From the NCBI RefSeq assembly GCF_058153355.1, contig NZ_CM177019.1: DNA of 64,000 nt. The stretch is one strand, 5' to 3'. The position numbers and the translations under genes are program-made. Of this stretch, positions 6,467 to 10,283 are shown piece by piece; the stretch's first letter is position 1, and every line of letters begins with the position of its first letter. Below the pieces are notes generated by a model, which made no database searches, was not told the DNA's origin, and worked only from the letters and a program-made list of their open reading frames with translations.

Positions 6467-8821
6467 CTATTTTGCAGTCACAACCTGCATGCCAGACGGT
6501 TCATTTTGCAGCGCCAGAGTCAGAACTTCCTCAATGCGTTTCACAGGATGAATGTCCAGATCAGCAATTACGTTGTCAGGAATCTCTTCCAGATCGCGTT
6601 TATTTTCGAACGGAATTAACACTGTTTTAATCCCGCCGCGATGCGCTGCCAGTAGTTTTTCTTTCAAACCACCGATCGGCAGTACCTGACCACGCAGAGT
6701 GATCTCACCGGTCATTGCCACATCGGCACGAACCGGGTTACCGGTCAGGCAAGAAACCAGCGCGGTGCACATAGCAATACCGGCACTCGGACCATCTTTC
6801 GGCGTCGCACCTTCCGGTACGTGGACGTGGATGTCGCGTTTTTCGTAAAAATCAGGGTTGATCCCCAGTTTTTCCGCACGCGCACGAACCACCGTTAACG
6901 CCGCCTGAATGGACTCTTGCATTACTTCGCCGAGCGAACCGGTATAGGTCAGTTTGCCTTTACCCGGAACGCACGCGGTTTCAATGGTCAGCAAGTCACC
7001 GCCCACTTCCGTCCACGCCAGACCAGTTACCTGACCGACACGGTTTTCGTTATCCGCGCGACCATAGTCGAAACGCTGAACACCGAGGTAGTCATGCAGG
7101 TTATCGCCGTTAATTTCGATATGTTTTAATGACTTATCGAGCAGTAACTGCTTAACCGCTTTGCGACACAGTTTGGAGATTTCACGCTCCAGGCCACGCA
7201 CGCCCGCCTCACGGGTGTAGTAACGAATAATGCCGATAATGGCGCTATCGTCGACGGTCAGTTCACCTTTTTTCAGTGCATTACGTTCAATCTGCTTCGG
7301 CAGCAGGTGACGTTTGGCGATGTTCAGTTTTTCATCTTCGGTATAACCGGAGAGGCGAATCACTTCCATACGATCCAGCAGCGGTGCCGGAATGTTCATG
7401 GAATTCGACGTCGCGACAAACATCACGTCGCTGAGATCGTAATCCACTTCCAGGTAGTGGTCGCTGAACGCTACGTTCTGCTCTGGATCCAGCACTTCAA
7501 GCAGTGCGGAAGCCGGATCGCCTCGCATGTCAGAAGACATTTTGTCGATCTCATCGAGCAGGAACAGCGGGTTTTTCACGCCCACTTTCGCCATTTTCTG
7601 GATCAGTTTACCCGGCATAGAACCGATGTAAGTACGGCGGTGACCACGGATTTCCGCTTCGTCACGCACGCCGCCCAGCGCCATACGAACATATTTACGT
7701 CCGGTAGCTTTGGCGATGGACTGACCAAGAGAAGTTTTACCTACCCCCGGCGGCCCTACCAGGCAGAGGATCGGTCCCTTGATTTTGTTGACACGGCTTT
7801 GAACCGCAAGATACTCAAGGATGCGATCTTTCACGCGCTCCAGACCATAATGGTCGGTATCAAGGATTTCCTGCGCCTGACGCAGGTCTTTTTTGACCTT
7901 GCTACGCGCATTCCACGGTACCTGTACCATCCAGTCGATATAACCACGCACTACGGTCGCTTCTGCCGACATCGGAGACATCATTTTCAGCTTCTGCAAC
8001 TCTGCTTCCGCTTTCTCTTTTGCCTCTTTCGGCATTTTCGCCGCGTCGATTTTGCGCTTCAGGGCTTCGTTTTCGTCCGGCGCGTCGTCCATTTCACCGA
8101 GTTCTTTCTGAATAGCTTTCATTTGCTCGTTCAGATAGTACTCACGCTGGGATTTCTCCATCTGCTTTTTAACGCGGTTGCGAATGCGTTTCTCAACCTG
8201 CAGCAGATCGATTTCCGATTCCATCATTGCCATCAGATATTCCAGACGTTCGTTGACGTCGGACATCTCCAGAACGGACTGTTTGTCAGCCAGTTTCAGC
8301 GGCATATGCGCAGCAATGGTATCCGCCAGACGCGCCGGATCGTCGATGCTATTCAGCGACGTCAGCACTTCTGGTGGAATTTTTTTGTTCAGCTTGATGT
8401 AGCCTTCGAACTGGCTGATTGCAGTACGCACCAGCACTTCCTGTTCCCGCTCATCAATGGTCGGCGACTCCAGATACTCCGCCTTCGCAGAAAAGTGTTC
8501 GCCATTGTCAGAGAGCGCAGAAATACGCGCGCGCTGTAACCCCTCGACCAGCACTTTGACGGTGCCGTCAGGCAGTTTCAGCATCTGCAATATAGAGGCC
8601 ACGGTCCCGACGGTGAAAAGATCGTTTACACCCGGCTCATCCGTTGAAGCTTCTTTCTGCGCGACCAGCATAATTTTTTTATCATGGTCCATCGCCGCTT
8701 CCAGACAACGGATAGATTTTTCCCGCCCGACAAATAAGGGGATGACCATGTGCGGATAAACCACCACATCGCGCAGCGGCAATACGGGGATTTCAATGCG
8801 TTCAGAACGCTCAGGATTCAT
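6467..8821 (-). CDS. lon: ATP-dependent Lon protease
   Basis: ORF 6467-8866; conserved Lon start [25 protein letters not shown], Walker [10 protein letters not shown], protease Ser motif PKDGPSAG; start set to 8821. Confidence 0.96.
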
Positions 8822-8954
8822 AGAGCTCTCTCTTAGTTTAATTTCCGCCAGGTAATCAGATGACACGACTGTGCTTCACGCCATCTATTAACATGTACGT
8901 CAGTATATGGGGATGTTTCCCCCACATTCAACGCCGAGAATAGAGGAAAAATTA

Positions 8955-8982
8955 AAGGGGAGATAAAATCCCCCCTTTTTGG
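8955..8982. terminator. bidirectional hairpin terminator between clpX and lon
   Basis: GGGGA-gataaaa-TCCCC followed by T-tract on plus and A/T-rich run on minus. Confidence 0.6.
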
Positions 8983-9008
8983 TTAACTAATTGTATGGGA
9001 ATGGTTAA

Positions 9009-10283
9009 TTATTCACCAGATGCCTGTTGCGCTTCCGGCTTGCCATAAATCAGCAACGGCTTGCTTTGACCATCAATTACCGATTCGTCGATAACCACTT
9101 TTTCGACGTCTTCCATGGACGGCAGATCGTACATGGTATCGAGCAGTGCGGCTTCTACGATGGAACGCAGGCCACGAGCACCGGTTTTACGCGCCATCGC
9201 TTTCTTAGCGATAGCATCCAGCGCCTCGTCACGGAATTCCAGATCCACGCCTTCCAGATTAAACAGCGCCTGATACTGCTTGGTCAGGGCGTTTTTCGGC
9301 TCTTTGAGGATCTGAATCAGAGCTTCTTCGCTCAGTTCATTCAACGTTGCGACAACCGGCAGACGACCAATGAACTCAGGGATCAGACCAAACTTGATCA
9401 GATCTTCCGGTTCAACCTGCGCCAGCAGCTCGCCTTCACTTGCTTTGTCAGATTTCGCTTTTACCGTCGCGCCAAAACCAATGCCGGAGCCTGTTTCTAC
9501 ACGATGGGAAATCACTTTATCCAGACCGGCAAACGCACCGCCACAGATAAACAGGATCTTAGAGGTATCAACCTGCAAGAATTCCTGCTGCGGATGTTTA
9601 CGCCCACCTTGCGGTGGAACAGCAGCTACCGTACCTTCGATCAGTTTCAACAGTGCCTGCTGTACGCCTTCACCGGAAACGTCTCGGGTAATGGACGGGT
9701 TGTCTGACTTACGAGAAATCTTGTCGATTTCATCGATGTAGACAATCCCGCGCTGCGCTTTCTGTACGTCGTAATCGCACTTTTGCAACAACTTCTGAAT
9801 GATGTTTTCAACGTCTTCGCCCACATAACCGGCTTCGGTCAGCGTGGTTGCATCGGCCATGGTGAACGGGACGTCCAGCAGGCGCGCCAGCGTTTCGGCC
9901 AGCAGCGTTTTACCGGAACCGGTCGGACCGATCAGCAGAATGTTACTTTTGCCCAACTCGACACCATTGCTGGTATCGCCGTTGCGCAGACGTTTGTAGT
10001 GGTTGTATACCGCGACCGCCAGCACTTTTTTCGCCTGTTCCTGACCGATAACGTAATCGTCCAGGTGGTTGCGAATTTCATGCGGCGTCGGTAGCGCACT
10101 GCGTTCACGATGCGGTGCAACTTCTTTAATCTCTTCGCGAATGATGTCGTTACATAAATCAACACATTCGTCGCAGATATACACGGATGGACCGGCAATC
10201 AGCTTGCGCACTTCATGCTGGCTTTTGCCGCAAAAAGAGCAATACAGCAATTTGCCTGAGCCATCTTTGCGTTTATCTGTCAT
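9009..10283 (-). CDS. clpX: ATP-dependent Clp protease ATP-binding subunit ClpX
   Basis: 424 aa; N-terminal zinc-binding CSFCGK...CDEC, Walker A GPTGSGKT. Confidence 0.97.

Follow-up and report, generated by a model that had tools for sequence, protein, structure and literature searches.

The spacer between clpX and lon in E. coli raises the question of what a hairpin followed by a T-run does on the plus strand between two genes that are read from the minus strand, and whether a small RNA ends there. The window (the whole stretch of 64,000 nucleotides that was analysed) carries the E. coli block tig-clpP-clpX-lon-hupB-ppiD entirely on the minus strand, which confirms the orientation assumed for clpX and lon. 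Window positions were converted to K-12 coordinates as 467709 minus the window position, the K-12 minus strand corresponding to the window plus strand. The spacer occupies 8822-9008 (187 bp; K-12 NC_000913.3, 458701-458887), and a 271-bp segment spanning it is 100% identical to K-12 MG1655. The original prediction had placed the left boundary at 8867, a limit taken from the longest open reading frame with an in-frame GTG at 8866, and this was moved to 8822 according to the annotated lon ATG at 8821. The 187-bp spacer was at least 99% identical in 5411 of 5425 E. coli records, whereas a 451-bp segment including the coding flanks fell below 99% identity in 1190 records. The features of the locus are collected in Table 1.

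Table 1. Features of the clpX-lon spacer and its borders in window coordinates
Feature	Position	Strand	Basis
lon start codon ATG (8821 = K-12 458888)	8819-8821	minus	annotated
Stem-loop near the lon mRNA 5' end, 11 bp, several G.U pairs	8858-8886	minus only	folding
Best sigma-70-like promoter candidate, TTAACA (8888)-18 nt-GATGTT (8912-8917)	8888-8917	plus	relaxed scan, 8/12 matches
Full-length match to Rfam RF02029 sraA (model 1-95 of 95)	8893-8988	plus	106.7 bits
lon transcription starts	8894-8897	minus	Cappable-seq, SMRT-Cappable-seq
lon promoter, -35 TTGAAT (8931-8926), 18-nt spacer, -10 CCCCATATACT (8912-8902)	8902-8931	minus	promoter scan, 9/12 matches
GGGGATGTTTCCCCC palindrome in the lon promoter spacer; Rfam hairpin 1; IS186 insertion site	8909-8923	either	
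U-tract of the clpX-sense terminator (TTTAATTTTT)	8947-8956	minus	Term-seq, SMRT-Cappable-seq and TRS 3' ends
Palindromic GC-rich stem-loop; clpPX intrinsic terminator hairpin, can form on the plus strand too	8954-8978	either	scan, folding
Presumed SraA 3' end, T-tract TTTTT then GGTT	8976-8980	plus	complement of the A-tract upstream of the clpX terminator
clpX stop codon TAA	9009-9011	minus	
clpX gene	9009-10283	minus	

Within the 64 kb of the window, RF02029 (sraA) was the sole Rfam family detected; its plus-strand score (106.7 bits) exceeds the gathering score of 56, versus 21.9 bits on the opposite strand. Weaker matches (DapZ, L20 leader, OxyS and others; E-values 0.7-8) were rejected as chance or generic terminator similarity. 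The sraA match lies between clpX and lon, antisense to both, and this arrangement is repeated in 20 other Enterobacterales loci. Reviews likewise place SraA (psrA/t15) between clpX and lon. In K-12, the plus-strand 3' ends 458758 and 458831 have been labelled 'antisense to sraA (G0-8861)' (Adams et al. 2021) under a criterion of opposite strand and a distance of no more than 50 bp from the gene; sraA therefore lies on the K-12 minus strand, i.e. the window plus strand, with its 5' end at or before window position 8928. The original placing of SraA in the K-12 spacer is borne out by the Rfam match and by this annotation, and both agree with the plus strand that had been proposed for it; the span proposed earlier, 8867-8985, gives way to the Rfam span given in Table 1. 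In locus, strand and sequence, the feature agrees with the SraA already catalogued in K-12 (RF02029; EcoCyc G0-8861; psrA3 or t15). The EcoCyc entry, which we take to be 57 nt long (K-12 458728-458784, window 8925-8981), is consistent with those antisense labels and with the promoter candidate in Table 1. A small plus-strand open reading frame beginning with ATG at 8893 (product MYVSIWGCFPHIQRRE) was rejected, as it has no ribosome-binding site and is stopped at codon 2 (ATGTAA) in Kluyvera.

Comparison with annotated sraA coordinates gave a divided answer. The EcoCyc gene G0-8861, as used by Adams et al. (2021), stands at the same locus and on the same strand, and sraA is missing from the RefSeq K-12 record: the spacer in NC_000913.3 (2026 copy) is without any feature, although the spf ncRNA is annotated in that record. 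In W3110 and 60 sampled E. coli genomes the spacer was devoid of any annotation. EcoCyc-derived annotations in papers of 2021 and 2025 list sraA and RefSeq MG1655 does not; in the 2025 paper SraA is still counted among the EcoCyc sRNAs. The omission from a RefSeq record that shows sRNAs such as spf favours a reading that we regard as rather improbable, namely that no discrete plus-strand RNA is made in vivo, that the T-tract is only the complement of the clpX-terminator A-tract and that 'SraA' is antisense noise or cross-detection; the continued listing of sraA in the EcoCyc-based papers of both years speaks against it.

The hairpin and T-run that had been described were present on the plus strand as GGGGA (8957-8961), GATAAAA, TCCCC (8969-8973), CC and TTTTT (8976-8980). 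They belong to a fuller stem-loop at 8954-8978, AAAGGGGAGAT-AAA-ATCCCCCCTTT, which has an 11-bp stem and a 3-nt loop, with GGAAAAATT to its left and TTGGTT to its right. An A-tract upstream of the hairpin generally makes intrinsic terminators symmetric. The terminator scan called the hairpin on both strands, and six terminator-like sites were counted in 1.1 kb versus 0.8 ± 0.9 in shuffled sequences, four of the six being registers of this hairpin. In the plus-strand geometry, at least five pairs are followed by CCTTTTTGGT. The fold energies were modest: the E. coli hairpin by itself gave −15.5 kcal/mol in the clpX sense (minus strand) versus about −11.1 kcal/mol in the sraA sense (plus strand), and the plus-strand segment 8893-8981 folded at −25.6 kcal/mol (z = −2.5).

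On the minus strand the hairpin coincides with mapped RNA ends. A Term-seq 3' end with an intrinsic-terminator score of 6.2 was reported at K-12 458758 (+), both in LB at OD 0.4 and in M63 (Adams et al. 2021); in SMRT-Cappable-seq, clpPX transcripts starting at 456576, 456604 and 456642 end at 458758 or 458759; and the TRS termini lie at 458759 or 458760. Together these three published data sets place the 3' ends at K-12 458758-458760 (window 8949-8951). Since this position is in the U-tract just past the hairpin, the hairpin is the terminator of the clpPX operon, and it ends most clpPX transcripts at 8949-8951 on the minus strand. The Rho score of the 458758 terminator end (1.66) was also significant (Adams et al. 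2021). The original description of the site as a bidirectional terminator therefore holds for the geometry, which is found on both strands, while the mapped RNA 3' ends lie on the clpX-sense strand only.

For the plus strand, no sraA-strand 3' end anywhere in the spacer appeared in the Term-seq lists (three conditions) or in the TRS lists, which are ordered by coordinate across both strands and hold dominant ends only. This result, too, would suit the reading that no discrete plus-strand RNA is made, as would a standard sigma-70 scan, which returned no plus-strand promoter above threshold; the candidate in Table 1 came from the relaxed scan. Because curated 3'-end lists retain dominant ends only and omit weak RNAs, however, the missing SraA end argues for low abundance rather than absence, and in E. 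coli the plus-strand hairpin followed by UUUUU is still a plausible terminator. RNA-seq studies moreover report SraA, which was seen in all conditions, unchanged, in one of them (PMC12266141), and whose homologue in Yersinia ruckeri was induced early in biofilm formation in another (PMC12112432). A full-text literature search with the alias psrA3 and with the presumed sraA coordinates returned nothing relevant. In the original screens of 2001, by Argaman and by Rivas, SraA is said to have been detected by Northern blotting.

The plus-strand promoter candidate has a predicted start near 8924-8925 and overlaps the lon promoter back-to-back. The lon promoter, an established one of the sigma-32 heat-shock type, overlaps a sigma-70-like TATACT. 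Its strongest start among the Cappable-seq sites listed was U00096.2 458039 (window 8894; score 189), and the SMRT-Cappable-seq start was 458812 (window 8897); lon transcription begins 55-60 bp downstream of the clpPX terminator. Minor lon-sense starts were also recorded upstream of the main one, at window 8929-8930 and 8985 (SMRT-Cappable-seq 458779 and 458724; Cappable-seq U00096.2 458004, among the sites listed); one of these starts precedes the clpX terminator hairpin.

The overlap of the two promoters, which would admit one polymerase at a time, is an argument for SraA as a genuine regulatory RNA with its own promoter, acting either in cis, by interference or competition at the lon promoter, or in trans by base pairing. 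We consider such a regulator distinctly unlikely, for reasons given below. Another proposal, to which we attach very little probability, is that SraA transcription is not noise and that its promoter forms a back-to-back pair with the lon promoter, only one of the two being in use at a time. Sigma-70 polymerase starting rightwards at about 8925 would then cover the lon sigma-32/sigma-70 promoter and lower lon expression in the absence of stress, antisense read-through into clpX would be prevented by the bidirectional clpX terminator, and the Escherichia-specific GGGG-N6-CCCCC palindrome, the IS186 hot spot, would belong to the switch.

Insertion at this palindrome was seen in one genome. In NZ_CP137696.1 (locus L086, 2440-2520), the end (...AAGTTAGCGCTTATG) of an IS4-like IS421/IS186 element lies within the GGGG run, abutting GGATGTTTCCCCC, and the region from lon through to the entD side is deleted. 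About 56 of the 5425 E. coli records were without an intact clpX-lon spacer.

The lon 5' UTR contains further elements on the minus strand. The stem-loop at 8858-8886 begins 8 nt from the 5' end of the lon mRNA and has no plus-strand counterpart; some compensatory change was found in it within the Enterobacteriaceae, where Citrobacter and Enterobacter keep the stem via two-sided changes, and it may serve to stabilise the 5' end or to regulate lon. In Yersinia, Rahnella and Pectobacterium a different repeat (CTCGTGAAAC...CACGAGTTTCAC) stands in its place. The last 30 nt or so of the 5' UTR (8822-8850) were nearly invariant in 28 Enterobacterales, reading ...CCTGGCGGA-N-TAAACTAAGAGAGAGCTCT-ATG in the lon sense, a conservation that far exceeds the requirement of a ribosome-binding site. 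A lon-sense region of Rho-dependent termination has been reported at window 8878 (K-12 458831; Rho score 1.78, p = 7.7e-8; Adams et al. 2021).

For the comparative analysis, 80 clpX-lon loci were gathered from Gammaproteobacteria. clpX adjoins lon in 79 of them, the remaining locus having only about 100 bases of sequence upstream of lon. Of 30 Enterobacterales spacers, 20 reached the RF02029 threshold, in every case on the strand antisense to lon, which is a point in favour of the regulator; none of the 10 loci scanned outside the Enterobacterales (Vibrio, Shewanella and other genera) did so. At 391 bp, the spacer of Budvicia diplopodorum (locus L029, 1110-1500) is roughly twice as long as the usual one of about 190 bp; the additional sequence separates the lon promoter from a different terminator-like hairpin (GGCCCGATAAACGTTTCGGTTTATCGGGCC).

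An alignment of 28 Enterobacterales spacers (A2) was used to ask which parts of the sraA model are conserved. The blocks that proved invariant inside the model, ATATGGGG and ACATTCAA, give the -10 and -35 elements of the lon promoter when read on the other strand, whereas the promoter spacer that separates them is free to vary. It is with this variable spacer that the fixed GGGG pairs in Rfam hairpin 1 (8900-8930). None of its nine pairs showed a compensatory change across the 28 species, and on the sraA strand the real spacers folded on average no better than shuffled ones (−4.15 versus −3.97 kcal/mol). Hairpin 1 is strong in Escherichia only (−8.7 kcal/mol in E. coli), is weaker in Citrobacter and Enterobacter and decays beyond Escherichia/Citrobacter. 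Hairpin 1 does not behave as a conserved RNA structure.

Rfam hairpin 2, the terminator hairpin, gave two-sided changes in 9 of its 10 pairs, with 88.6% of the alignment cells paired across the 28 species. The pairing favours one strand: wobble cells were G.U in the clpX sense (A.C in the sraA sense) in 22 cases versus 8 the other way, and 285 of 308 cells were paired in the clpX sense versus 271 of 308 in the sraA sense. When a T-tail was defined as at least six T in the 9 nt after the stem, with the stem delimited by its GC core, it was kept in 26 of 28 species in the clpX sense versus 15 of 28 in the sraA sense (Wilcoxon p = 9e-5, the species not being independent). In the sraA sense the tail was down to four T at most in six species, among them both Yersinia, Providencia and Arsenophonus. 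The wobble pairs, the hairpin energies and the T-tails point to the clpX-sense strand as the one under selection. Taken together, it is mainly the terminator of clpX and the promoter of lon that selection maintains, and most of the sraA 'family' consists of these two elements read from the opposite strand. The A.C mismatches, which weaken the plus-strand hairpin, can be counted for the reading that no discrete plus-strand RNA exists.

The same comparison weighs against SraA as a regulator: the conserved positions are exactly those of the lon promoter elements and the clpX terminator, hairpin 1 is free of compensatory change, and Yersinia, Rahnella bruchi, Providencia and Arsenophonus have lost the T-tail on the plus strand. 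The E. coli plus-strand U-tail consists of five U followed by GG, which is probably short for an Hfq-dependent sRNA. Overexpression of SraA was without phenotype in biofilm, motility and fimbriae screens (PMC4606813), and SraA was among 34 Salmonella sRNAs dispensable for mouse virulence (PMC3384567); the absence of sraA from the RefSeq K-12 record points the same way. What remains on the side of a regulator, besides the antisense matches and the promoter overlap, is the RNA-seq detection in all conditions, the induction in Y. ruckeri biofilms and the Northern detection reported for the original screens. Evidence for SraA as a discrete, functional RNA is thin.

On balance we consider it probable that the clpPX terminator is symmetric on both strands and sets the 3' end of SraA, that SraA is a weak and functionless by-product, and that the conservation of the family comes from the lon promoter and the clpX terminator. 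The arrangement of A-tract, hairpin and T-tract would give the same hairpin and U-tract shape on either strand, and on the plus strand the hairpin would stop polymerase travelling from the lon promoter region toward clpX, this stop being the presumed 3' end of the catalogued SraA (RF02029, EcoCyc G0-8861). A weak divergent promoter overlapping the lon sigma-32/sigma-70 promoter would give rise to a short transcript, of about 57 nt if started near 8925. SraA is most likely a short, low-abundance antisense or divergent transcript, whose start site and abundance we infer; it is not known to have a target or phenotype and would have no function of its own. The conservation of the sraA family would then arise because the lon promoter elements and the clpX terminator are maintained, not from the structure of the SraA RNA. 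SraA may nevertheless have a regulated role, as the Y. ruckeri induction and the detection in all conditions count against the view of SraA as a by-product.

Bidirectional intrinsic terminators with an A-tract, a hairpin and a T-tract reportedly occur genome-wide in E. coli, in SEnd-seq work of 2019 attributed to Ju and colleagues. The present site resembles them in its symmetric GC hairpin, in its U-rich tails on both strands and in its position between a protein-coding operon and a convergent transcript. It differs in that the flanking protein genes are codirectional, the convergent partner being a small antisense transcript only, and in that termination is documented for one strand only. 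The lon heat-shock promoter with its IS186 hot spot is the second known system that is touched on here: the first 40 nt of the sraA model, counted from its 5' end, correspond in reverse complement to the lon -10, spacer and -35, and an IS186-type element was found in the GGGG run in one genome. That promoter differs from SraA in being a DNA-level element on the opposite strand and not an RNA feature. Relative to the SraA family there is no difference of sequence, and the doubt concerns the family itself, in which hairpin 1 is without covariation and the columns that are conserved belong to the lon promoter and the clpX terminator.

Earlier work had described the clpPX terminator, the heat-shock promoter of lon and sraA, and the feature is already known. 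Its discovery value is small, and the useful by-product of the analysis is a point of curation: what the Rfam sraA family represents seems to be a promoter together with the terminator of a neighbouring gene, read on the wrong strand. Because RF02029 seems to model these two elements, its matches in other genomes do not show that a small RNA is made there, and a terminator built of A-tract, hairpin and T-tract can produce an apparent 'orphan' sRNA gene.
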